From an uncultured Acidobacteriota bacterium (GTDB taxonomy: Bacteria > Acidobacteriota > Vicinamibacteria > Vicinamibacterales > 2-12-FULL-66-21): DNA of 64,000 nt. The stretch lies in NCBI GenBank assembly GCA_963797715.1, contig CAWCQS010000013.1, forward strand, positions 350,855-414,854. The letters run 5' to 3'. The notes below the pieces were generated by a model. The model ran no database searches. It had not been told where the DNA came from and saw only the letters and a list, made by a program, of their open reading frames with translations. Shown piece by piece: positions 16,569 through 28,762 of this stretch. The first letter of the stretch is position 1. Each line of letters starts with the position of its first letter. The translations under genes and the position numbers were made by a program.

Positions 16569-17545
16569 TCAATTCCACCTCATTCCGCGCAACTGATCGA
16601 GGTTGACGTTGCCGCCGCTCAGGACGCAGACGACCCTCGAACCCGCGGGCAGCGTCGATGAGGCCCTCGAGGAGCGCCGCAACTGGCGCCGCGGCGGCGC
16701 CTTCGACGACGAGCTTGGCGTGCGCCATGACCCACAGCATCGCCTCGAAGATCTTCTCGTCCGGGAGCGTCACGATGTCGATCCACCATCCGGCGGACGA
16801 CCTCGAACGTGGTTTCGCCGACGCGTTTGACGCGCAGGCCGTCGATGATGCAGTCGACGCGATCGAGCGTCACGACGCCGCCTGCCCGAACGCAGTCACG
16901 CATCCCCGGCGCGCCGGACGACTCCACACCGATGACTTTTACCGACGGCTTGAGCGCCTTCACCGCCATCGCGACACCGGAGATGAGGCCGCCACCGCCG
17001 ATCGGCACCACGATGGCGTCGACGTCCGGCCAGTCCTGCACGACCTCGAGGCCGAGCGTTCCTTGTCCGGCGATGAGCTGCAGATCGTCGAACGGATGCA
17101 CGTATGTCAGTCCGCGGTCGCGCACGAGCTCTTTGGCTTTGTCGTTGGCCTCGTCCCAGATCGTCCCATGCAGCACGACCTCGGCGCCATAACCGCGCGT
17201 CGCCGCGACTTTCGACGGCGTCGCGTTCTCGGCCATGACGACGACCGCGTTGATGCCGTGGATGCGGGCGGCGAGCGCCACGCCCTGCGCGTGGTTGCCG
17301 GCCGACGAACAGACGACGCCGCGGCGCCGCTCGTCGTCGGAGAGCAGCGCGAACTTGTTCAGCGGCCCGCGGATCTTGTACGAGCCCGTCCGCTGGAACA
17401 TTTCCGCCTTCAGCCGAACGTCATATCCGGTGCGCTCACTGAGCATGCGCGACGACAGCAGCGGCGTGCGGTGGATGTGCGGCGACACATGCGCGTAGGC
17501 GGCTTCGAACACGTCGAGGCCGAGCGGAAGCGCTGCGACGGTCAT
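16569..17545 (-). pseudogene. PLP-dependent threonine ammonia-lyase/dehydratase, broken by two frame shifts (about 16780 and about 16643)
   Basis: SYKIRGP (PLP lysine), SSAGNHAQGVA and PIGGGGLISG. After ..EVVRRMVD the conserved DIVTLPDEKIFEAMLWVMAHAKLVVEGAAAAP is in ORF 16561..16773. The end GSRVVCVLSGGNVNLDQLRGMRWN* is in the third frame (stop 16569-16571). Confidence 0.8.
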
Positions 17546-18731
17546 TGCCCGGACATCCGCCGTCACCATGATCTCGACCAGCCCGTCCGCCGCAACCAGG
17601 CCGCGTCTGGACGCGTGGCGCGAGCGGGGAAGTCGCTGCTCGAAAAACGCCCGGTAGGCGTCGTTCATCGTCTGGAACGTTTTGATGTCGGTCAGATAGA
17701 CGACCGCGTCGCGACGTCGGCGGGCGTGCAGCCGGCGGCCGTCAGCGCACCGCGGATGCGCGAGCAGCGTCTCGCGCGTCTGCGCCGCGACGTCGCCTTT
17801 CGTTTCGGCCGTGTTGCCGAGCATGCCCGAGAGATAGACGCGGTGGCCGGCGCGGATTGCCGCGCTCAGGTTCGGATTCGCCGGCCGCCCGTCGTCGATC
17901 ACGCGCTTGCGCGGTGCGGACGAGGCGACCAGGGTGATTTCGACGTTGTACTGGCTGCCCGCGAGTCCGGCCTTGACCGTCGCGCGAGCCGGCGGCGCCG
18001 ACGAGAAGTAGCTCGCGGTAGGTCGTCGTTCATCTGCTGGAAGGTCGGCGACGTCTGGCAAATACACGCGCGCGCTGACGACGTTGGCGAGCGTCATGCC
18101 CGCCGCCTTCAGAATCTCGGCCGCGTTGTCCATGACGGCCGCCGTCTGCGTCGGCACGTCGCCGGTGACGACCGAGTTGTCCTTGCCGTTGCGCGACACG
18201 AGTCCCGAGAGAAACAGCGTGTCGCCCGTGCGGATCGCGTAGCTGTACGGGTTCGGCGACGTCGCTCCAGCCGGCCGGATGGACGACCACACGCTCGGCG
18301 CCGGTCGGGACGGCAACCATGGAAATCTCTACCAGCGCGTCCGGCAGCACGAGGTCGGCGACGACCGTCGTCCGCGTCGGCGGATCCTTGGTCCAGAATG
18401 CCTTGTAGGCCTCGTTCATCGCCGCAAAGTCGGCGGCGGATTTCAAATACACGGTTACGGCCACGACCTGCTCGAGCGACGAGCCGGCCGCCGTCAACAA
18501 CGCACGCATCCGTTCGATGACGCGTGTGGTCTGCCCCTTGATGTCGCCCTTCGGGGCGACATCGCCGGCCGCGTCCTGAGACAGCGTGCCGGAGATGTAG
18601 ATGAGACCCCCGGCTTTGACCGCCTGACTATAAGGTCCGACCGGAGGTGTGCCGACAGAGAAGATCGCCTTGTTCGAGGATTGTGTGGACATGGCAAAGA
18701 CACTGGCGAAAAGGAGCACGCACGTGCGCAT
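17542..18731 (-). pseudogene. Signal-peptide-bearing protein with three tandem RidA/YjgF domains, carrying multiple frame disruptions
   Basis: MRTCVLLFASVFAMS signal peptide. Domain 1 is intact in ORF 18030..18731. Domains 2 and 3 are in the frame of ORF 16619..18316, but their conserved F..MN..Y..F and PARATV blocks are only recovered by skipping bases (see findings). The 3' end is uncertain: in-frame run-on into the dehydratase, or caaTGA overlapping its ATG. Confidence 0.65.
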
Positions 18732-18876
18732 GTGCGCAATTCTAAGCCACGGAGAACGCGTGATGTCGGCAGAGGGAAAACACGGTTGAAATCAGCCACG
18801 GAAAACGCCGATGCCAGTGTGGGTCCGGGTCTTTCGTGGCGTAAAATTGAAACGCACCCCATACGGAGGCCCCCGA

Positions 18877-19875: not shown

Positions 19876-19909
19876 CGCAACGCAATTCTGAATGCCATCC
19901 GGAGGCACC

Positions 19910-21703
19910 ATGAGGCAGCTGCGCAAGTCAGGGGCACAACGGCGTCGGTTTCTCAAGGCGGTGCCTGCCGCCGTCGTTGGCGGCCTGGCGGTCCCCGCCC
20001 TTGCGCAGCAGCCTCCGGAGCAGCCGCGCCGCATCAGCAAAGACACGCTGGAATGTGGTGAAAAGATCTTCGGCGTCGACTTCTCGGACGCTGAGGAGGA
20101 GCAGGCGCTCGCCGGCGTCAACCGCAATCTCGACACGTACGAGCAGCTGCGCGCGATTGAGGTACCGCTCGACACCGAGCCGGCATTCACGTTCAGGCCG
20201 TACCTTCCGGGCAAGAAGCCGAAGGGCGCGTCGACTCCTGGCGCGAAAATGAAGATCGGTCTGCACCCACCGGCAGCCCGCCGATCGTCGCTCGACGATT
20301 TGGCATTTCTGCCGGTCACGGCACTCGCGCCGCTCGTCGAACGTCGTGAGGTCTCCTCCACCGACCTCACGAAGATGTATCTCGAGCGGCTGAAGAAATA
20401 CGGACCGAAGCTCAATTGCGTCGTCACGCTGACCGAGGATCTCGCGCTCGCGCAAGCGGCGCAGGCCGACAAGGAAATCCGCGCCGGCAAATATAAAGGA
20501 CCACTCCACGGGATCCCCTGGGGCGGCAAGGATCTCTTGGCGACGAAAGGGATTCTCACGACGTGGGGCGCGGGACCGTTTCAAAATCAGGTGTTCGACT
20601 ACGATGCGACGGTCGTCGAGCGGCTGCGGGATGCGGGCGCGGTGCTCGTCGCCAAGCTGTCGATGGGCGCCTTGGCGCAGGGCGACCGATGGTTTCGCGG
20701 CCAAACGAAGACGCCCTGGAATCTCGAGAACGGATCGAGTGGCTCTTCGGCGGGACCAGGCTCGGCTACAGCGGCCGGGCTCGTGGGGTTCTCACTCGGC
20801 ACGGAGACGCGCGGCTCGATCATCTCGCCGTCGGCAGTCAACGGTGTGACCGGCCTGCGGCCAACCTACGGCCGCGTCTCGCGCCACGGCGCCATGGCGC
20901 TCAGCTGGACGATGGACAAGATCGGTCCGATGTGCCGATCCGTCGAAGACTGCGCGTTGGTGTTCAACGCGATTTACGGCTCGGACGGGCGCGACGACAC
21001 CGTCGTCGACGCGCCGTTCGTCTGGAACGCCGACGTGCCGCTGTCGAAGCTGCGCATCGGCTATATCAAATCCGAATTCGAGCCCGCAGCAGAAGGTCGT
21101 AGTGGTCGGGGCGATGCCGGCGGCCGCGGCGACGGGCGCGGACGCGGAGGATTGTCACCGGAAGAACAGCGGCGGCGCGCGGAAGAGCGACTGAAGCTCC
21201 TGAACGGTGCGCTCGACGTCTATCGCAACGCGGGCGCAACGCTCAAGCCGATCGAGCTGCCTGAAACCTTGACGGGCTATACGTCAAATCTCGCGTTCGT
21301 GCTGAGCACCGAAGCCGCCGCCGCCTTCGACGACCTGACGCGCGGCCCCGGTATCAAGGACGAGAGCCTGAACACGTGGCCGAACACGTTCAGGACGCAC
21401 CGCTTCGTCCCGGCGGTCGAGTACATCAGGGCGCAGCGCATTCGCACGCTCCTGATGCGCGAGATGGACAAGCTGATGGCGGACTTCGATGTGTTCCTGT
21501 CGTCCACCAACAGCGCCAGCTTGAGCCTGACCAACCTCACCGGCCATCCTGCGGTGGCCGTCCGGGCGGGATTCGTCGCCAACGCGCCGTTGATGCTGAT
21601 GGTGACCGGCCGGCTCTACGACGAAGCGACGCTGTTGAGGGTCGCGCTGGCGCACGAACGCGCGACGAAATGGAATGAGACAACGCCGACCATGCAATCC
21701 TGA
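19910..21703 (+). CDS. Amidase-signature family amidase with a twin-arginine (Tat) signal
   Basis: RRRFLKAVPAAVVGG..ALAQQ Tat-like leader. GIPWGGKDL and NGSSGSSAGPGSATAAG match the amidase signature. There is a Gly/Arg-rich insertion (GRSGRGDAGGRGDGRGRGG). Confidence 0.8.
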   Translation: MRQLRKSGAQRRRFLKAVPAAVVGGLAVPALAQQPPEQPRRISKDTLECGEKIFGVDFSDAEEEQALAGVNRNLDTYEQLRAIEVPLDTEPAFTFRPYLPGKKPKGASTPGAKMKIGLHPPAARRSSLDDLAFLPVTALAPLVERREVSSTDLTKMYLERLKKYGPKLNCVVTLTEDLALAQAAQADKEIRAGKYKGPLHGIPWGGKDLLATKGILTTWGAGPFQNQVFDYDATVVERLRDAGAVLVAKLSMGALAQGDRWFRGQTKTPWNLENGSSGSSAGPGSATAAGLVGFSLGTETRGSIISPSAVNGVTGLRPTYGRVSRHGAMALSWTMDKIGPMCRSVEDCALVFNAIYGSDGRDDTVVDAPFVWNADVPLSKLRIGYIKSEFEPAAEGRSGRGDAGGRGDGRGRGGLSPEEQRRRAEERLKLLNGALDVYRNAGATLKPIELPETLTGYTSNLAFVLSTEAAAAFDDLTRGPGIKDESLNTWPNTFRTHRFVPAVEYIRAQRIRTLLMREMDKLMADFDVFLSSTNSASLSLTNLTGHPAVAVRAGFVANAPLMLMVTGRLYDEATLLRVALAHERATKWNETTPTMQS

Positions 21704-21716
21704 ATGCTGAATTCTC
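21696..21716. repeat. Three heptamer units (aatcctg aatgctg aattctc) bridging two convergent stop codons
   Basis: Read directly. It belongs to the same CTGAATG family as 14587-14678 and 42612-42645. Confidence 0.55.
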
Positions 21717-23614
21717 TACCGGCGCTCCGCCTTCACGAGCGCCGTGAGCGCCCGTCCCTGCTCGAAGTCGCCAAGGTGCTCGGCGGTGGTGACATAAACG
21801 TCGCGCGCTTCGCCCGACAATTTGTGCGTCGTGACGACGGTCTGCAGGACCTGTCCCGTTTCGAAGCTGCTGCCCATGGCCTGCGCCGCGCGCAGCACGG
21901 CGACGACTGTTTCCGGCGTCAGATTCGGCCGCTTTGCCACCGCCTGGAGCACCCGCCCACGCTCGAATGACGAATCGATCGTCGACACGGCGGCGAAAAA
22001 CGGCGTTCGCAGCGGACCATCAACCGGCTGCAGCTTCGCGACCTCCAGGAGGAACGAGGCCTGCTCGAAGTCGGACCCGATCGACACCGACGGATCGAGC
22101 ATGATCGCCAGCGTCTCAGGCGTGGGATCGGCCTTCACCACTGCGGTGACGACGCGGCGACGCTCGAAGTCGCTCGTGACCGTCGCCAGCGCCTTGAGAA
22201 ACACCGGGCGCGTGCGCGCGTCGAGCGGCTGAACCTTCGCAATCTGTTCGAGCAGCGACGCCTCCTCGAAGTCCGAGTCGATCGACGTGCTCGCCTCGAG
22301 CACGCCGGCCAAGATCTCGGGCGATACCGGCCCGCGCTGGAGCGCCGCTGACAGCGCGCCGCGCATCTCGAAATCCGACTCGATGCTGCGCGCCGCGGCA
22401 AAGTAGGCGCGCCGCGTGGTGTCGTCGGCCAGAAGGTGCGTTGACGACTTCAGCAGGCTGGCCAGCTCAAAATCTGAATCTATCTGCCGTCCGGCCTGCT
22501 CGAGCACCTGCGCGACCGTCGCCGGATCGAGCCGGTTCTTCAGCAGCTCGGTGAAGTAGATGCGCTTGGCCCAGCTCCCCTCGATCAGGTTGATCTCGGC
22601 AAGTACGCCCGTGACGCCCTTCGCCTTGAAGATGCGCGCAACACGGCTCTCGGCCCCAAACCCAGTCTGCCGGATGACCTTCGGCAACATCTGCGACAGC
22701 CACGCTTTGCCCTCGGGGACAAAGGGCTTTTCGCTCCGGCCATCCCAGTAACGCCGCTCGATCGTCCCTGACCCGTCGGCTCTGAATTCGACAGCCCGCG
22801 AACTAACCCAACCCCTCTCGCGTATCCGCATGAACGCGCCGGGCGACATCGTCTTGACGTCGCTGTCGTCGTCTGTGAACTCGATCGAACCCTCGTAGCG
22901 GACCTCGAGCTTCTGCTTGCCGTCCGACCACATGAAGTTCCCGTTCGACTGCGACCGCTCGAATCCATACGGCGGCGCGGGTGGCGTCGGCGGAGTTGGC
23001 GGCGTCGGAGGCGTCGGCGGCGTCGGGGGTGCCGGCGGCGGCTCTGCTGCGACCGGCGTCGGCGGCGTGGGTGGAGTCGGGGGCGTTGGCGGTGTCGGAG
23101 GCGTGGGTGGCGTTGGCGGTGCGGGTGGCACCGGCGGCGTCGACCATGTGAACTGATCGAGCACTTCGGCAACGAATGAGGCGACGGCCTGGCCGACGGC
23201 AATCGTCGGGGTCGCGACCGGCGCGGCGGCTTCACTCCGAACAGTATTCGCTCGAGCAACGACTGGAGCCGCTTCACTTGCCGTCGTAGCCGGGCGCGCC
23301 GGCGCTGCCGGCGCCGTCACAGGCGCGGCATTGATCGCCGTTGAAACTTCCGGCGCCATTTCCTGCGTGACCGGCACAGCGTCGGATGCGTCCGCCGACT
23401 CGACGACCGCGTTCTGGCCGATCGCGCCGGCAGCAATACCGGCGATCAGGACGACAGCAGGACCGCCCGCAAGCCAGCCCGGTCCGCGGCCGGCGTGCGA
23501 TGGGGCTCCGAGCAAGCCGGCGCACGCGCAGCAGCAGCGATCCGCCGTTGGCCGCAAGCGCCAGCGGCGCCGAGTCGCCGCGCAATTCTTCGAGATCGGC
23601 GAGCGCCTTCGCAT
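21716..23614 (-). CDS. C-terminal portion of a BlaR1-like M56 signal transducer: TM segment, Ala/Pro-rich region, Pro/Thr linker, beta-rich module and eight ~34-aa SDFE repeats
   Basis: The frame joins the M56 fragment near 23515 (..GGSLLLRVRRL | LGAPSHAGRGPGWLAGGPAVVLIAG..). The first ~30 codons of the track ORF are out-of-frame overlap. Confidence 0.7.
   Translation of the reverse strand: MRRRSPISKNCAATRRRWRLRPTADRCCCACAGLLGAPSHAGRGPGWLAGGPAVVLIAGIAAGAIGQNAVVESADASDAVPVTQEMAPEVSTAINAAPVTAPAAPARPATTASEAAPVVARANTVRSEAAAPVATPTIAVGQAVASFVAEVLDQFTWSTPPVPPAPPTPPTPPTPPTPPTPPTPPTPVAAEPPPAPPTPPTPPTPPTPPTPPAPPYGFERSQSNGNFMWSDGKQKLEVRYEGSIEFTDDDSDVKTMSPGAFMRIRERGWVSSRAVEFRADGSGTIERRYWDGRSEKPFVPEGKAWLSQMLPKVIRQTGFGAESRVARIFKAKGVTGVLAEINLIEGSWAKRIYFTELLKNRLDPATVAQVLEQAGRQIDSDFELASLLKSSTHLLADDTTRRAYFAAARSIESDFEMRGALSAALQRGPVSPEILAGVLEASTSIDSDFEEASLLEQIAKVQPLDARTRPVFLKALATVTSDFERRRVVTAVVKADPTPETLAIMLDPSVSIGSDFEQASFLLEVAKLQPVDGPLRTPFFAAVSTIDSSFERGRVLQAVAKRPNLTPETVVAVLRAAQAMGSSFETGQVLQTVVTTHKLSGEARDVYVTTAEHLGDFEQGRALTALVKAERR
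22970..23139 (-). repeat. Coding low-complexity repeat: two blocks of (PPT)n separated by VAAEPPPA
   Basis: Translation PPVPPAPPTPPTPPTPPTPPTPPTPPTPVAAEPPPAPPTPPTPPTPPTPPTPPAPP. The underlying DNA is a 9-nt-period GGCGGYGTS repeat. Confidence 0.85.
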
Positions 23615-24461
23615 AGGCGTACGGATCGCCGCACAAGCTGACCGCGAGATCGTCGCAGCAGTTCTCGCGCTCGATCCGAATCCGCCGCGAGAGCCACCAC
23701 ACCGCGGGGTGATAGAAGAGGAGCGTCTCGACGAGCGTCTGCAGCAGGTTGACCAGATAGTCGTGACGCCGGATGTGCGCGAGCTCGTGCGCGAGGATTG
23801 CCTCGATCTGCTGCGGTGCCATGCCGGCGAGGGCGCTCGCCGGCATCAGCACGACCGGCCGCAACCAGCCGACGACCGTCGGCACTTCCACCAGTGCCGA
23901 TTCGAGGAAGCGGATCGGACGGGCGATGTGCAACTGCTTGGAGAGCCGGACGGCGGTCTGCCGCCAGCCATTTGCGGCGGGCGATGTGCCGCGCGACTTC
24001 AGCCGTTGCACCCATGCCCATCCAACCAGCAACCGCATCGTCAGAATGGCCACCCCGGACAACCACACCAGGAACACGAGGCGCAGCCAATTCTCGCCAT
24101 TGCTGGTCCGAATTGTCGTATCAGCGGCGATGAACGGCACGGCGGGTCCGATGTCGGCCGCTTCGGCCGGTCGTGCCACCGGATCGAACGGCACCGAGGT
24201 AAGGGGCTGGCTCGCTGTCGGCAGCCGGTCGTCCGTAATCGTGCGCCAGGTCTGCACGGCTGTGACCGTCGGCATCGTCAACATCAGCGCCAGCCCGATC
24301 GTGGCGACGACGTAGCGAACATCGGCGGCGCTGCGCCTGAGCGCGACGAGCGCGATGGCCGACAGGAGCCCGACAAGCGCGCCCTGCCAAACGAACTGAA
24401 GGAGCGCCCACCCGATCGCCTGTGCCGCCGGCTGCTGGAACAGTTGCTCAATCGCGGTCAT
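23274..24461 (-). CDS. BlaR1-like M56 family metallopeptidase/signal transducer, N-terminal fragment (genuine to about 23515)
   Basis: HELAHIRRHD (HExxH), multi-TM N-terminus MTAIEQLFQQP.., and a position directly downstream of a BlaI-type repressor (14-nt overlap). After ..RVRRLA the frame turns into Arg/Cys junk. Confidence 0.8.
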   Translation of the reverse strand: MTAIEQLFQQPAAQAIGWALLQFVWQGALVGLLSAIALVALRRSAADVRYVVATIGLALMLTMPTVTAVQTWRTITDDRLPTASQPLTSVPFDPVARPAEAADIGPAVPFIAADTTIRTSNGENWLRLVFLVWLSGVAILTMRLLVGWAWVQRLKSRGTSPAANGWRQTAVRLSKQLHIARPIRFLESALVEVPTVVGWLRPVVLMPASALAGMAPQQIEAILAHELAHIRRHDYLVNLLQTLVETLLFYHPAVWWLSRRIRIERENCCDDLAVSLCGDPYAYAKALADLEELRGDSAPLALAANGGSLLLRVRRLARSPIARRPRTGLACGRSCCRPDRRYCCRRDRPERGRRVGGRIRRCAGHAGNGAGSFNGDQCRACDGAGSAGAPGYDGK

Positions 24462-24876
24462 CACGAACCTCCCGATCGCTGTCGATTCCACTGTCTCGTG
24501 CGCCGTCCTTGCCGCGCTCGAGCATCTGCCTGATTTCCGCGAGCTCGTCCGACGAGGCGCGCTTGGTCGCGAGGGCCTGCAGGACGAGCTTCGACGACGA
24601 GCCGCCGAACGCGCGATCGAGCAGGTCGCGAATCAGCTGCCGCTGGGTCTGCTCTTCGCTCAGCTTTGAGTGATAGACGTGCGTGCGGTCGGATTCGTCG
24701 CGTCGAACGAGCCCTTTTTCCGTCATGATCTGCAACAGCTTGAGCGCCGTCGTATAGGCGGTCGGCCGCTCGCGCGACATGACATCGTGCACCTGGCGCA
24801 CGGTGCTCGGACCGAGCTGCCAGAGCACGCGCAGTATCGAGAGCTCGGCGTCTGTGGGGCGTGGAGTCTTGGACAT
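24448..24876 (-). CDS. BlaI/MecI/CopY family transcriptional repressor
   Basis: N-terminal winged helix PTDAELSILRVLWQLGPSTVRQVHDVM..TTALKLLQIMTEKGLV, about 140 aa, upstream of the M56 gene. Confidence 0.85.
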   Translation of the reverse strand: MSKTPRPTDAELSILRVLWQLGPSTVRQVHDVMSRERPTAYTTALKLLQIMTEKGLVRRDESDRTHVYHSKLSEEQTQRQLIRDLLDRAFGGSSSKLVLQALATKRASSDELAEIRQMLERGKDGARDSGIDSDREVRDDRD

Positions 24877-24923: not shown

Positions 24924-24966
24924 AGTCTACGAAGTTCTTCGTCGATGTCAACGAAGAACTTCGTAG
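24924..24966 (-). promoter_or_regulatory. Putative blaI promoter embedded in a perfect 16-nt inverted repeat (likely BlaI operator)
   Basis: The minus strand reads CTACGAAGTTCTTCGT-TGACATCG-ACGAAGAACTTCGTAG-ACT. That gives -35 TTGACA (plus 24946-24951), a 16-nt spacer and -10 TAGACT (plus 24924-24929). The arms 24927-24942 and 24951-24966 are exact reverse complements. The site is about 50-90 nt upstream of ATG 24876. Confidence 0.65.
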
Positions 24967-25194: not shown

Positions 25195-25716
25195 ATGGAG
25201 CCAGGAATCTACGCAAAGTTCGATACGACCGAGGGGTCGTTTACCATCCGACTCTTCGATAAGGAGGCCCCGAACACCGTGGCCAACTTCGTCGGCCTTG
25301 CCGAGGGCACGAAGGAGTGGCGACACCCCGGAACCGGCGAGAAGCAAACGGCCCCCTACTACGACGGCATCATCTTTCACCGTGTCATCGAGGGCTTCAT
25401 GATCCAGGGTGGCGACCCGCTCGGCCAGGGCACCGGCGGACCGGGCTACAACTTCGGGGACGAATTCCACCCGTCGCGCCGCCACGACAAGGCGGGAATC
25501 CTGTCGATGGCCAATGCCGGCCCTGGCACCAACGGCAGCCAGTTCTTTATTACGCTCGGGCCGACGCCGCACCTCAACAACAAGCACTCCGTCTTCGGCG
25601 AGGTTGTCTCGGGCCTCGACGTCGTCAAGAAGATCGGATCGGTACCAACGGGCCGGCAGGATCGTCCGATCACGCCGGTCGTCATGAACAAGGTGACTAT
25701 CGAGCGGGTGTCCTAG
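25195..25716 (+). CDS. Peptidyl-prolyl cis-trans isomerase, cyclophilin type
   Basis: FHRVIEGFMIQGGDP, GPGTNGSQFFIT and NNKHSVFGEV. Confidence 0.9.
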   Translation: MEPGIYAKFDTTEGSFTIRLFDKEAPNTVANFVGLAEGTKEWRHPGTGEKQTAPYYDGIIFHRVIEGFMIQGGDPLGQGTGGPGYNFGDEFHPSRRHDKAGILSMANAGPGTNGSQFFITLGPTPHLNNKHSVFGEVVSGLDVVKKIGSVPTGRQDRPITPVVMNKVTIERVS

Positions 25717-25717
25717 C

Positions 25718-26248
25718 GTGGCGGATGACCGGCAGTCACTCGATTCGCTGCTGCCGGTCGTCTACCAGGAACTGCGGCGGCTCGCGGCTGGCTACCTGCG
25801 CCGCGAGCGTCCAGGACAGACACTTCAGCCCACCGGTCTCGTCCACGAGGCATACCTTCGTCTCATGAAGGATCGGCCGGATCGCTGGCAGAATCGCGCG
25901 CACTTCTGCGCGATTGCCGCGCACTCGATGCGGCAGATCCTCATCGAACGCGCGCGGGCGCGCGGCGCGCTGAAGCGTGGCGGCGCCGACCGGCGCGTCA
26001 CGCTCGACGAGGCCCTTGTTGCCGGCGGTGAACAATCGTTCGACATCCTCGCGCTCGACGCCGCACTCGAAAAGCTGGCGGCGCTCGACGCCGAACAGGC
26101 CCGGCTCGTGGAGCTCAGGTTCTTCGGCGGCCTCACGGTCGAGGAAACCGCCGAAGCCATGTCGATTTCGCCGGCCACGGTGAAGCGGCACTGGGCGATC
26201 GCGCGCGCCTGGCTCGCCCGCGAGTTGGAGGGCAACTCGCAAACGTGA
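25718..26248 (+). CDS. ECF-type sigma-70 family factor of the kinase-associated subgroup
   Basis: LLPVVYQELRRLAAGYL..TLQPTGLVHEAYLRL (region 2) and TVEETAEAMSISPATVKRHWAIARAWL (region 4). GTG start. The stop overlaps the next gene start (GTGA). Confidence 0.8.
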   Translation: MADDRQSLDSLLPVVYQELRRLAAGYLRRERPGQTLQPTGLVHEAYLRLMKDRPDRWQNRAHFCAIAAHSMRQILIERARARGALKRGGADRRVTLDEALVAGGEQSFDILALDAALEKLAALDAEQARLVELRFFGGLTVEETAEAMSISPATVKRHWAIARAWLARELEGNSQT

Positions 26249-27702
26249 ACCAGGACCGCTGGCGGCAGGTCAACTCGCTTTTTCATCAGGCGCTCGACCT
26301 CGACGCCGCGGCCCGCGACGCGCTGCTTCGCCAGACCGCCGACACCGACCCCGAACTCGCGGCGGAGGTGCGATCCCTCCTTGCGCGCCACAGTCAGGAC
26401 TCCAATTTCCTCGAAGTGCCGGCATGGTCGGTTGCGGCGGATCTCGTCGCGGACGAGGGGCCGGCGCGGATTGGTCAGCGGATCGGCCCGTACACGATTC
26501 TCGAAGAGTTGGGCCGCGGCGGCATGGGCGTCGTGTACGCGGCCCGCGACGAGAGGCTTGGCCGCACCGTTGCGCTCAAGGCGCTTCCGCCCGAGTACAC
26601 GCGCAATCGTCGCCACCGCGAACGGCTCGCGCAGGAAGCACGGGCGGCGGCGGCGTTTACGCACGAGGCCATCGCCACCGTCTTCGCGCTCGAGGAGATC
26701 GACGGCGAACTCTACATCGCGTCGGAGCTGGTGCATGGACAGACGCTCCGCACAGAGCTCGCGGGCGGGCCGGTACCGGTCAATCGCCTGATCCCGACCC
26801 TCATCGACATTGCCTCCGGCCTCGCCGCTGCTCATGCCAAAAAGATCGTCCATCGCGATCTCAAACCGGAGAACTTGATGCGGCGGACAGACGGTCACAT
26901 CAAGATCCTCGATTTCGGCCTGGCCCGCATCGACGAACCCGACGTGTCGACGCGCACCAAGTTGACGAAAACGGGCACGGCGCCGGGCACGCCGGGTTAC
27001 ATGGCACCGGAGCAACTCGCTGGCGCCCCGATCGACGGCCGCACCGACATCTTCTCGTTCGGCGTGGTGGCGTTGGAACTCGCAACCGGCGAGCATCCGT
27101 TGGGGTCGAACCCGGCGCTGAGGGTCGCACAGATGATGGAGGAACGTGCGTCGCTGCCGCAGCAACTTCCCAATCCGGCGCTCAGGCACATCATTCGCCG
27201 GTGCCTGAAGGTCTCGCCGGCCGACCGGTACGAGACGGCCGACCAGCTGCTCGAGGATCTCCAGAAGTTGCGGCTGGCAACAGGCGGCGTCCTCACCGAC
27301 GGCTGGTGGTGGTGGCGATTCCACCAGGGGATGATGACGGCCGTCGACGTCGCGACGCCGATCCTGGCGTGGGCGGCCCGAGGCGAGCTCGCGGCGCCGT
27401 TTCGAACGCAGTTCTTCCTCGCTGTCCTCGCGCTTGCGACCGCCGCAGTCACGCTGCGATTGAATCTCCTCTTCACGGCACGGGTTCACCCGACAACGCT
27501 CGGCAGCCACCGCGCGCGGTTGTCCCGGTGGATCGCAGGTTCGGAAGCAGGCATCGCGGCGCTGCTTCTCGGCGCCGCCGCAGCGATCGCCGAAACGCGG
27601 CCAGTAACCGCCGCCGTCCTCGTCAGCCTGGCCATCGTGATGCTGGCATCGCTGGCGCTGATCGAGCCGGAGACTGCGCGCGGGGCGCGCCTCGATACCT
27701 AG
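26245..27702 (+). CDS. Ser/Thr protein kinase with C-terminal TM helices, coupled to the ECF sigma factor
   Basis: GRGGMGVVYAARD..VALK, HRDLKPENLM, DFGLAR and GTPGYMAPEQ. The N-terminal WRQVNSLFHQALDL..ELAAEVRSLLARH is typical of sigma-linked kinases. Confidence 0.85.
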   Translation: MNQDRWRQVNSLFHQALDLDAAARDALLRQTADTDPELAAEVRSLLARHSQDSNFLEVPAWSVAADLVADEGPARIGQRIGPYTILEELGRGGMGVVYAARDERLGRTVALKALPPEYTRNRRHRERLAQEARAAAAFTHEAIATVFALEEIDGELYIASELVHGQTLRTELAGGPVPVNRLIPTLIDIASGLAAAHAKKIVHRDLKPENLMRRTDGHIKILDFGLARIDEPDVSTRTKLTKTGTAPGTPGYMAPEQLAGAPIDGRTDIFSFGVVALELATGEHPLGSNPALRVAQMMEERASLPQQLPNPALRHIIRRCLKVSPADRYETADQLLEDLQKLRLATGGVLTDGWWWWRFHQGMMTAVDVATPILAWAARGELAAPFRTQFFLAVLALATAAVTLRLNLLFTARVHPTTLGSHRARLSRWIAGSEAGIAALLLGAAAAIAETRPVTAAVLVSLAIVMLASLALIEPETARGARLDT

Positions 27703-27754
27703 CGGCGGCGGAACACACGCGATATTCGCGACGAATCCCTGTAGAATGTGAGCA

Positions 27755-28762
27755 ATGCGGCTGTGCACCTGCGTCGTGCTGCTGTTTCTCCAGGTAAGCG
27801 GAACGGCGCGCGCGCAGGACGTGGCCGTGGCCCCGCCGCAGCCGTTCGACGCCTGGCTCGCCGACCTTCGTGCCGAAGCGCTCACCCGAGGCATCCGGCC
27901 CGAGATTCTCGACGCCGCGTTCGCTGACATGCAACCCGTCGAACAGATCCTCCAACGCGATCGCACGCAGGCGGAGTTCGCCCTCGATCTCACCGCGTAT
28001 CTGAAACGGCGCCTGACGAGCCGCGCCGTCCAGACCGCGCAGCAGATGCACACTCAGTATCACGACCTTCTCGCCGCCGTCGGCAAGAAATACGGCGTTC
28101 AGCCGCGGATCATCACCGCGGTCTGGGGGCTCGAATCAAACTTCGGGCGATTTGCCGGCGTGCGTCCGACGATTCCGGCGCTGACGACGCTCGCGTACGA
28201 TCCGCGGCGCGCGACGCTCTTTCGCAAGGAGCTGTTCAGCGCGCTCGAGATCGTCAATCGCGGCGACATCGAGCTCGAACGCCTCAAGGGCTCGTGGGCC
28301 GGCGCGCTCGGCCAGCCGCAGTTCATGCCGTCCACGTATCTCGAGTTCGCGCAGGACTTCGACGGCGACGGCCGCCGCGATATCTGGAGCTCCCAGGCGG
28401 ACGTGTTCGCGTCGGTGGCGCACTACCTGAAGGAGCACGGCTGGTCCGATACGTCGACGTGGGGTCGCGAGGTGAAGGTGCCAAAGGCGGCCAGATCCCG
28501 TGTCACGGCTGTGCCGCATCGCCCTGAAGGCTGCCGCGCTGTCCGCGCGCTCAGCAAGCGCCTCCCGCCCAAGGAATGGTCCAAGATGGGCGTCCGAACG
28601 CTCGCCGGCACGGCGCTGCCCGCAAGCGCGATCGATGCCTCGATGGTGACCGATGGCGCGCGGTTCTTTCTCGTCTACCCGAATTACGAAGCACTGCTCT
28701 CGTACAACTGCGCCACAAGTTACGCCATCAGCATCGGAATGCTCTCGGATCGGCTCAAGTAA
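27755..28762 (+). CDS. mltB: Lytic murein transglycosylase (MltB family)
   Basis: Signal peptide, WGLESNFG and AGALGQPQFMPSTY motifs. Confidence 0.8.
   Translation: MRLCTCVVLLFLQVSGTARAQDVAVAPPQPFDAWLADLRAEALTRGIRPEILDAAFADMQPVEQILQRDRTQAEFALDLTAYLKRRLTSRAVQTAQQMHTQYHDLLAAVGKKYGVQPRIITAVWGLESNFGRFAGVRPTIPALTTLAYDPRRATLFRKELFSALEIVNRGDIELERLKGSWAGALGQPQFMPSTYLEFAQDFDGDGRRDIWSSQADVFASVAHYLKEHGWSDTSTWGREVKVPKAARSRVTAVPHRPEGCRAVRALSKRLPPKEWSKMGVRTLAGTALPASAIDASMVTDGARFFLVYPNYEALLSYNCATSYAISIGMLSDRLK

Follow-up and report, generated by a model that had tools for sequence, protein, structure and literature searches.

A BlaI-linked M56 metalloprotease gene in an uncultured Acidobacteriota bacterium carries a widespread, uncurated C-terminal tail in place of a penicillin-binding sensor

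The window analysed here is a stretch of 64,000 nucleotides (positions 350,855 to 414,854 of contig CAWCQS010000013.1, assembly GCA_963797715.1) from an uncultured soil Acidobacteriota bacterium of the order Vicinamibacterales, whose genome assembly consists of 26 contigs. It contains, on the minus strand, a gene for an M56-family metalloprotease of the BlaR1 type, placed immediately downstream of a BlaI-family repressor gene, which is the adjacency expected of BlaR1/MecR1-type systems. The protease gene ends in a long tail that matches no named family, and this tail, the family behind it and its probable role in a repressor-cleaving switch are the subject of this report. The features of the locus are given below in the direction of transcription (TM, transmembrane segment; E, E-value).

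24924..24964 (-): promoter-like TTGACA-16-TAGACT (10/12 promoter matches) with two overlapping dyads, the presumed BlaI operator
24448..24876 (-): BlaI/MecI/CopY-family repressor gene, 142 aa (PF03965 at E 3.5e-27)
24461-21719 (-): M56 metalloprotease gene, downstream of blaI
23516..24461 (-): 5' part of the M56 gene, frame A, with TM1-TM3 and the presumably cytoplasmic zinc-protease loop (PF05569, hydropathy)
23514..23515 (-): frame break, one extra T (junction DNA compared with ten relatives)
23402..23473 (-): fourth TM segment, LAGGPAVVLIAGIAAGAIGQNAVV, frame B (hydropathy)
22970..23401 (-): Pro/Ala/Thr/Val-rich linker, 144 residues (P 45, A 30, T 22, V 14)
22727..22945 (-): beta domain, tail residues 9-81, eight strands, with a conserved F.DDD.DV..SPGG loop (AlphaFold2)
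22481..22723 (-): four helices that open the solenoid, including a degenerate repeat 0 (GSWA, 22490-22591) (AlphaFold2, conservation)
21719..22489 (-): eight two-helix repeats of 33-34 residues, each opening with [SG][DS]FE (motif scan, AlphaFold2)

The M56 gene is spread over two overlapping open frames of the minus strand, frame A at 23274-24491 and frame B at 21716-23614. The two frames join at LLLRVRRL|LGAPSHAGR, which is the same junction as in the intact homologues (...LLYRVRRLLGAPSHAGR...). At this position the window reads cgccggcTTgctcgg and each of ten relatives reads cgccggcTgctcgg, a difference of TT versus T, and all ten cross the junction in a single frame. Because the intact homologues are continuous across the junction, we conclude that the window encodes one protein, as a preliminary description of the locus, made from the letters alone, had assumed in bridging a shift near 23515. 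With the break bridged and the ATG at 24461 taken as the start, the protein is 914 residues long.

Frame A matches Peptidase_M56 (PF05569, E 9.2e-32) with 110.8 bits at a gathering cut-off of 31. Its HELAH motif (23775-23789, residue 225) lies between TM3 and TM4 and, together with the downstream Glu of IERE, aligns with H201/E202/H205 and E242 of Staphylococcus aureus BlaR1 (HEYAH; PDB 8EXS). The HExxH...E zinc site is intact, with both the HExxH motif and the Glu ligand that mark the BlaR1/MecR1 type. Hydropathy gives four hydrophobic segments (residues 23-41, 51-69, 124-146 and 330-353) in the same order as in BlaR1, from which we infer that the protease loop should face the cytoplasm and the C-terminal domain the outside. 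Against the NCBIfam model blaR1_generic, frame A reaches 93 bits, below its cut-off of 400 bits. Frame B has no match in Pfam, and neither PF00905 nor any other transpeptidase-type family was found in the tail by Pfam or NCBIfam. The preliminary description had read the gene as an M56 protease followed by a further TM segment and lacking a penicillin-binding sensor, and on all three counts our results agree with it.

Behind TM4 follows the Ala/Pro-rich stretch that had been described, the 144-residue linker. It holds two (PPT)n blocks, as had been reported, at 23057-23137 and 22976-23038; both fall in a period-9 array called by Tandem Repeats Finder at 22970-23142. The tail proper comprises the final 417 residues (21719-22969). 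AlphaFold2 predicts eight beta strands in tail residues 9-81 and 19 helices in the part behind them (83-416), with a mean predicted local distance difference test score (pLDDT) of 92.5 and a predicted TM-score (pTM) of 0.85. A second model, restricted to tail residues 1-165, agrees with the first (pLDDT 89.7). Per block, the beta domain has pLDDT values of about 74-93 in the first model and 88-95 in the second. The tail thus appears as a beta domain of about 75 residues, behind which some 9.5 alpha-alpha hairpins form a predicted solenoid with a period of 33-34 residues, and the alpha-solenoid suspected in the preliminary description is what the model shows. The '150-aa beta-rich module' proposed there holds for its beta part only; the remainder is part of the solenoid, namely its four opening helices, which include a ninth, degenerate repeat. 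The most conserved residues of the whole tail (R100, R109, G118, V122, E125 and Y138) sit in these four opening helices.

The eight repeats themselves are as first reported. There are eight copies of the motif [SG][DS]FE at intervals of 33, 34, 34, 33, 34, 34 and 33 residues, and three or more matches were obtained in only 1 out of 20000 shuffles of the tail. In the model, the helices linked to the motifs start at tail residues 166, 199, 233, 267, 300, 334, 368 and 401, in each case the residue after the first one of the motif. Ser, Asp and Glu of the motif are more than 90% conserved in 59 tails, down to 29% identity, and the number of strict motifs ranges from roughly 5 to 11 among homologues. 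The degenerate repeat 0 in front of the eight reads GSWA here and SD[YH]x in relatives. Two alternating sub-types had been claimed for the array. The alternation of A-type (SDFE-x-AS-LL) and B-type (SDFE-x-R-R-V-L) units is found in repeats 1-6; it does not extend to repeats 7 and 8, which are both B-like.

A Ser at the N-cap combined with a Glu at N3 makes a classic capping box. Since the motif always stands at a helix start, with its Ser as N-cap and its Glu at N3, S-D-[FY]-E is most simply taken, in the model, as a ladder of helix N-caps and capping boxes that would hold the solenoid together, and not necessarily as a ligand site. An acidic cation-binding ridge was considered as a general property of the tail and rejected: the net charge of the tail runs from +6 to -91 with a median of -6 among 59 homologues, which makes a general polyanionic function unlikely.

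None of the databases searched names this tail. Pfam returned only chance matches for the tails of the window protein and 13 diverse homologues, and in the same 14 proteins the TPR, HEAT and Sel1 profiles gave no match even at E <= 1. There was no NCBIfam match to the tail, and neither phmmer nor a profile search of the PDB yielded anything below E 0.07. TonB_C (PF03544) is likewise not matched by this protein in Pfam. When the whole tail was compared with the PDB by Foldseek, the only matches were TPR, designed TPR/repeat and HEAT proteins at TM-scores of at most 0.36 and E of about 1e-3 or worse, none of them significant. A second Foldseek search of the PDB, with the beta domain plus the four helices, gave nothing below E 1e-3, the best match being an Hsp70 substrate-binding domain at a probability of 0.18-0.33. 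Our literature search found nothing specific on this domain in Acidobacteriota. By sequence, profile and fold the tail is an uncurated family without a name in Pfam, NCBIfam or the PDB, and the preliminary description's statement that the repeats could not be assigned holds up. The unit most similar in kind is the 34-residue TPR repeat, which shares with the modelled tail a helix-turn-helix unit of 33-34 residues that forms a superhelical rod. It differs in its consensus residues, and the tail has neither a Pfam TPR match nor a TM-score above 0.36.

The family is large. A word-indexed search found more than 753 tail homologues among 8000 scored candidates, mostly proteins of 860-1000 residues with PF05569, which their sources label 'M56 family metallopeptidase' or 'beta-lactamase regulating signal transducer'. 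In an exhaustive search of representatives at 50% identity, the tail retrieved 2829 clusters at E <= 1e-3, of which 1038 reached E <= 1e-30. In all homologues examined the tail is C-terminal. M56 is present in eight out of nine remote members; of ten shorter matches, four are N-truncated M56 proteins and six have no Pfam match. The 19 sampled matches therefore comprise M56 proteins, N-truncated M56 proteins and proteins without a Pfam match, and among them no alternative N-terminal partner was found. Neither tblastn nor a profile search found a second copy or a secreted twin of the tail in its own genome, where it is single-copy.

Carriers include many Vicinamibacterales, Solibacteraceae, Holophagaceae, Gemmatimonadota, Candidatus Eisenbacteria and a metagenome-assembled genome (MAG) of Verrucomicrobia, as well as Kangiellaceae, Marinicella and Alteromonadaceae. 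Among 41 relatives, 24 have the tail, in essentially one gene per genome; nearly every genome of the same family has it, as opposed to one of 16 genomes that belong to the order's other families. When the phylum was sampled evenly, 13 of 301 genomes contained it. Almost every acidobacterial locus has BlaI upstream, and it is detectable too in the loci of Gemmatimonadota, Eisenbacteria and Aliikangiella. Beyond Vicinamibacterales the pairing of BlaI, M56 and tail is the sole recurring arrangement, with BlaI undetectable in some loci. A cultured and experimentally tractable carrier is the marine gammaproteobacterium Aliikangiella coralliicola M105, in which the gene after BlaI encodes an M56-tail protein of about 800 residues with SDFE repeats (L083:4296-7116); here the linker is short, with about 30 residues from TM4 to the beta domain.

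The beta domain also occurs without the solenoid. Several matches in the phylum sample are limited to tail residues 5-100 (E 1e-12 to 6e-22). An acidobacterial M56 protein of 806 residues (L090:1769-4189) carries the beta domain at residues 409-512, between TM4 and a transpeptidase domain (PF00905, E 1.4e-46); the homology of this segment to the beta domain of the tail is supported by a hidden Markov model match (E 9.5e-13) and by hhalign (probability 96.5%, E 9e-10). When the beta adapter of this transpeptidase-type protein served as the query of a word-based search, only the protein itself and one relative 75% identical to it were retrieved. Judged by these alignments, the beta domain is a separable, independent module that precedes different heads. 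Its occurrence in front of a penicillin-binding domain and of a Lys-rich repeat leads us to propose it as the coupling element. The Lys-rich case is another acidobacterial M56 protein (L091:1456-3924), in which the beta adapter is followed by about five Lys-rich VKKGGKVV repeats and a coiled-coil-like C-terminal stretch; Pfam matches nothing in this protein past the M56 domain.

The product of the repressor gene aligns end to end with the structures of MecI, BlaI and Rv1846c. Upstream of the gene, the sigma-70-like promoter TTGACA-16-TAGACT lies at 24951-24924 (10/12 matches, 0.1 expected by chance) and is overlapped by the dyads ACGAAGTTCTTCGT and ACGAAGAACTTCGT (ACGAAG-NN-CTTCGT), which are 22 bp apart. 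In 42 of 50 related loci, blaI is preceded by two ACGAA-N4-TTCGT dyads with a distance of 21-23 bp between them. Within its own genome the double dyad has only two sites, this operon and that of the closest M56 paralogue. This paralogue (C11:152843-154246, with HELAHVRRHD, an in-frame TAG and scrambled frames) has the double operator TTACGAAGCGGTTCGTAAT twice, 23 bp apart, at C11:154620-154656, and is either a casualty of assembly errors or a pseudogene. One further exact dyad, inside a porin-like gene, probably arose by chance. At C8:339952-339967 the genome reads CTACGAAGTTCTTAGTAC, one mismatch from the BlaI dyad, just upstream of an open reading frame for a MacB/ADOP-like permease (MKDITYAVRGLRKNAGF...); the site may be a distal BlaI target or a chance occurrence.

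Divergent from the BlaI-M56 cassette, an operon at 25195-28762 (+) encodes a cyclophilin (PF00160), an extracytoplasmic function (ECF) sigma factor (PF07638), a Ser/Thr kinase (PF00069) and an MltB-like lytic transglycosylase (PF13406). The cyclophilin, ECF sigma and kinase genes stand divergent from the cassette in about 42 loci of Vicinamibacterales, with a spacer of 89-387 bp (median 251 bp), and the MltB-like transglycosylase is found near the cassette in 15 loci. From this arrangement, co-regulation of the divergent cyclophilin/ECF sigma/kinase operon seems possible.

The best-studied systems of this kind are BlaR1/BlaI and MecR1/MecI of Staphylococcus aureus and Bacillus licheniformis (cryo-electron microscopy structures 8EXP-8EXT; PMC9834060). 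The locus has in common with these an M56 gluzincin domain with HExxH...E, four TM segments of which the third and fourth flank the protease loop, a domain C-terminal to TM4 that is presumably extracytoplasmic, a winged-helix repressor of the BlaI family encoded next to the protease, and dyad operators over the operon promoter. It differs from them in that the sensor is a predicted beta domain plus alpha-solenoid and not an acyl-serine penicillin-binding domain, that 144 Pro-rich residues separate the sensor from the membrane, that no gene for a beta-lactamase or penicillin-binding protein is under visible control, and that the host is diderm. The position aligned with the scissile bond also differs, Q|A here as opposed to N|F in MecI and BlaI.

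BlaR-like proteases are numerous, and most BlaR homologues are already known to lack a beta-lactam sensor: a transpeptidase domain is present in only about 6% of M56 proteins, and 'M56 + no identifiable domain' is the most abundant architecture class (PMC13492132). Atypical BlaIR pairs without the transpeptidase domain include CenIR of Clostridioides difficile (PMC13492132) and PvmSR of Pseudomonas aeruginosa (bioRxiv 10.64898/2026.08.03.742534), and the BlaIR systems of Mycobacterium tuberculosis and M. abscessus have also been studied (PMC13492132; bioRxiv 10.64898/2026.08.03.742534). The C-terminal regions of CenIR, PvmSR and the mycobacterial proteins are short, missing or disordered according to these papers; the tail described here is a widely conserved module of 417 residues which AlphaFold2 predicts to be folded. 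In calling the tail novel, the preliminary description was right that it has no named family; the word needs qualification, as M56 without a transpeptidase domain is the rule (PMC13492132) and the tail is common in soil metagenomes. What is new relative to public resources is a large, apparently folded and uncurated tail family, and a two-part design whose beta adapter also serves a penicillin-binding head.

The genome itself holds 11 M56 matches above the Pfam cut-off. A survey of C-termini, suggested at the outset, covered eight intact paralogues: four end in TonB_C, one in HEAT repeats and three in nothing recognisable, and none of the eight has a transpeptidase domain. The HEAT case (C8:668192-670618) is an array of HEAT/PBS-lyase type (HEAT_2, E 4e-71) and represents a second solenoid-type BlaR-like sensor in this genome. 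M56 proteins with TonB_C, HEAT or TPR domains, including these paralogues, share with our protein the order of M56, TM4, Pro-rich linker and presumably periplasmic protein-binding domain. They differ from it in that the tail matches no HEAT, TPR or TonB_C model and has I.SD[FY]E A/B units of its own and the beta domain.

Taken together, the locus is probably a switch of the BlaI/BlaR1 type that consists of two genes, works by regulated proteolysis and senses something other than an antibiotic. By homology, it comprises what should be an autoregulated BlaI repressor gene and a catalytically intact M56 protease. BlaI is a direct substrate of S. aureus BlaR1, which is activated when the ligand displaces an extracellular loop from the sensor (PMC9834060). 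If the present protein follows the topology of BlaR1, its tail would reside in the periplasm and receive the signal there, with the solenoid as a variable ligand-binding head and the beta domain as a conserved coupler of this head to TM4 and the protease. Since the usual partners of solenoids are proteins, peptides or polymers, we consider a macromolecule or polymer of the envelope or periplasm a likelier ligand than a small molecule, and a beta-lactam would not be the signal. Binding of the ligand, or loss of a bound partner, might then act through TM4 and the extracellular loop on the cytoplasmic protease, which would cleave BlaI near LVLQ100|A101. The blaI-M56 operon would be derepressed as a result, and perhaps the divergent cyclophilin/ECF sigma/Ser-Thr kinase operon as well.

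Several observations weigh against such a switch. The proposed cleavage site LVLQ100|A101 lies, in an ungapped alignment with MecI, opposite LVLN101|F102, the cleavage site of MecI and BlaI (PMC9834060), and its P1' residue is not conserved. The operator scan of the genome found no convincing BlaI target beyond the autoregulatory site. The alignment behind the AlphaFold2 tail model is shallow, with 26 sequences at 59-98% identity. The extracellular TM2-TM3 loop, which transmits the signal in BlaR1, is poorly conserved among the homologues, and the flexible linker of 144 residues is at odds with a rigid-body coupling of sensor and membrane as in BlaR1. Because of the last two points, the transmission step is the weakest inference in the scheme.

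A serious rival to ligand sensing, although in our view an unlikely one, assigns the tail the role of a tether or scaffold: the linker would span the periplasm and the tail dock on a fixed outer-membrane protein, a lipoprotein or the peptidoglycan, and the switch would report the integrity or spacing of the envelope through loss of contact or strain instead of a diffusible signal. Such a tether would suit the long Pro/Ala/Thr linker with its polyproline-like (PPT)n blocks and the solenoid, since solenoids are typical protein-docking surfaces and Foldseek matched only TPR and HEAT scaffolds. It would also suit the four own-genome paralogues that end in TonB_C, a domain which docks on outer-membrane receptors. 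M56-TonB_C is, moreover, the second commonest M56 architecture (PMC13492132). Yet the long linker is not universal, as the 30 or so residues of the Aliikangiella homologue demonstrate, and outside Vicinamibacterales no conserved partner gene adjoins the cassette. The proteolytic switch with a sensory tail remains our preferred interpretation.

A more far-reaching version of it can be offered only tentatively. The beta domain and the SD[FY]E solenoid might together form a new class of portable periplasmic receptor for BlaR-type proteases of diderm bacteria, with the beta domain as a general adapter for interchangeable heads (the SD[FY]E solenoid, the penicillin-binding domain, the Lys-rich repeats) and the solenoid as the reader of an envelope ligand that is itself periodic or extended, for instance a glycan strand, some other polymer, or a protein that is unfolded or secreted. 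If this were true, soil Acidobacteriota and Gemmatimonadota would possess a family of envelope-surveillance switches that feeds ECF sigma and Ser/Thr-kinase circuits.

Whichever ligand applies, part of the M56 class with 'no identifiable domain' turns out to be a large, conserved and, by prediction, foldable family of putative receptors and not a disordered tail. The family spans at least 2800 sequence clusters, several phyla and at least one cultured bacterium, and its naming and modelling would improve the annotation of thousands of soil-metagenome proteins. It also provides a handle on the non-antibiotic signals of switches that work by cutting a repressor: a domain of 417 residues, a defined operator and a cultured host. 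Established knowledge of BlaR signalling is not overturned by this finding.

It remains to account for the frame break, since the assembly as given does not contain the M56 gene as an uninterrupted frame. Comparison with the relatives makes it likely that the extra T is an assembly error, probably of the long-read type, in which case the organism would make the full protein of about 914 residues. At least three further frameshifts were observed in the same neighbourhood. At 16572-18737 (-) of the window, the relatives' intact orthologues align in shifted frames at three sites, at ~18270 in a triple RidA-like gene and at ~16780 and ~16645 in a gene for a pyridoxal phosphate (PLP)-dependent dehydratase, all within 8 kb. 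The shifts in this region point to an indel-prone assembly. The closest relatives are MAGs with few long contigs and record names of the form contig_N, which we take to be long-read assemblies, and several of them are broken elsewhere in the same gene.

The assembly could also be correct. In that event the extra T would be genuine and the gene a real, very recent pseudogene whose truncated M56 product lacks TM4 and the sensor, and this organism would have a dead switch. The break as assembled and the state of the M56 paralogues, one with an in-frame TAG (C11:152843-154246) and one short and possibly truncated (C17), are compatible with decay. We nevertheless regard it as quite improbable. Frame B stays open for 632 codons past the break and encodes a tail that shares 98% identity with a metagenomic protein, and the ten relatives are all in frame at the break site. 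The housekeeping-type neighbours (RidA-like, PLP-dependent dehydratase) are similarly shifted within the same 8 kb, and sequencing error is therefore a better fit than selective decay. A functional break, be it a +1 frameshift that is programmed or a division of the protein into two halves, the protease and a separately made membrane-anchored sensor, could draw on an ATG at 23614 in frame B, 5' of TM4, and on the many tail-only proteins called in databases, but is hardly credible: the contigs behind those proteins are either short or of long-read origin with fragmented neighbour genes, relatives that are broken are broken at other positions, and a programmed shift is ruled out for practical purposes because none of the ten relatives shares the extra base and CGG-CTT-G, the sequence at the site, offers neither a stop nor a rare codon for stalling. 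We thus retain the assembly error as the explanation of the break.

At its 3' end the M56 gene faces another gene. The scan called no terminator-like hairpin between the two (21703-21716), where only 12 bp separate the end of the M56 gene from that of a convergent gene for an amidase with a twin-arginine (Tat) signal (19892-21703).

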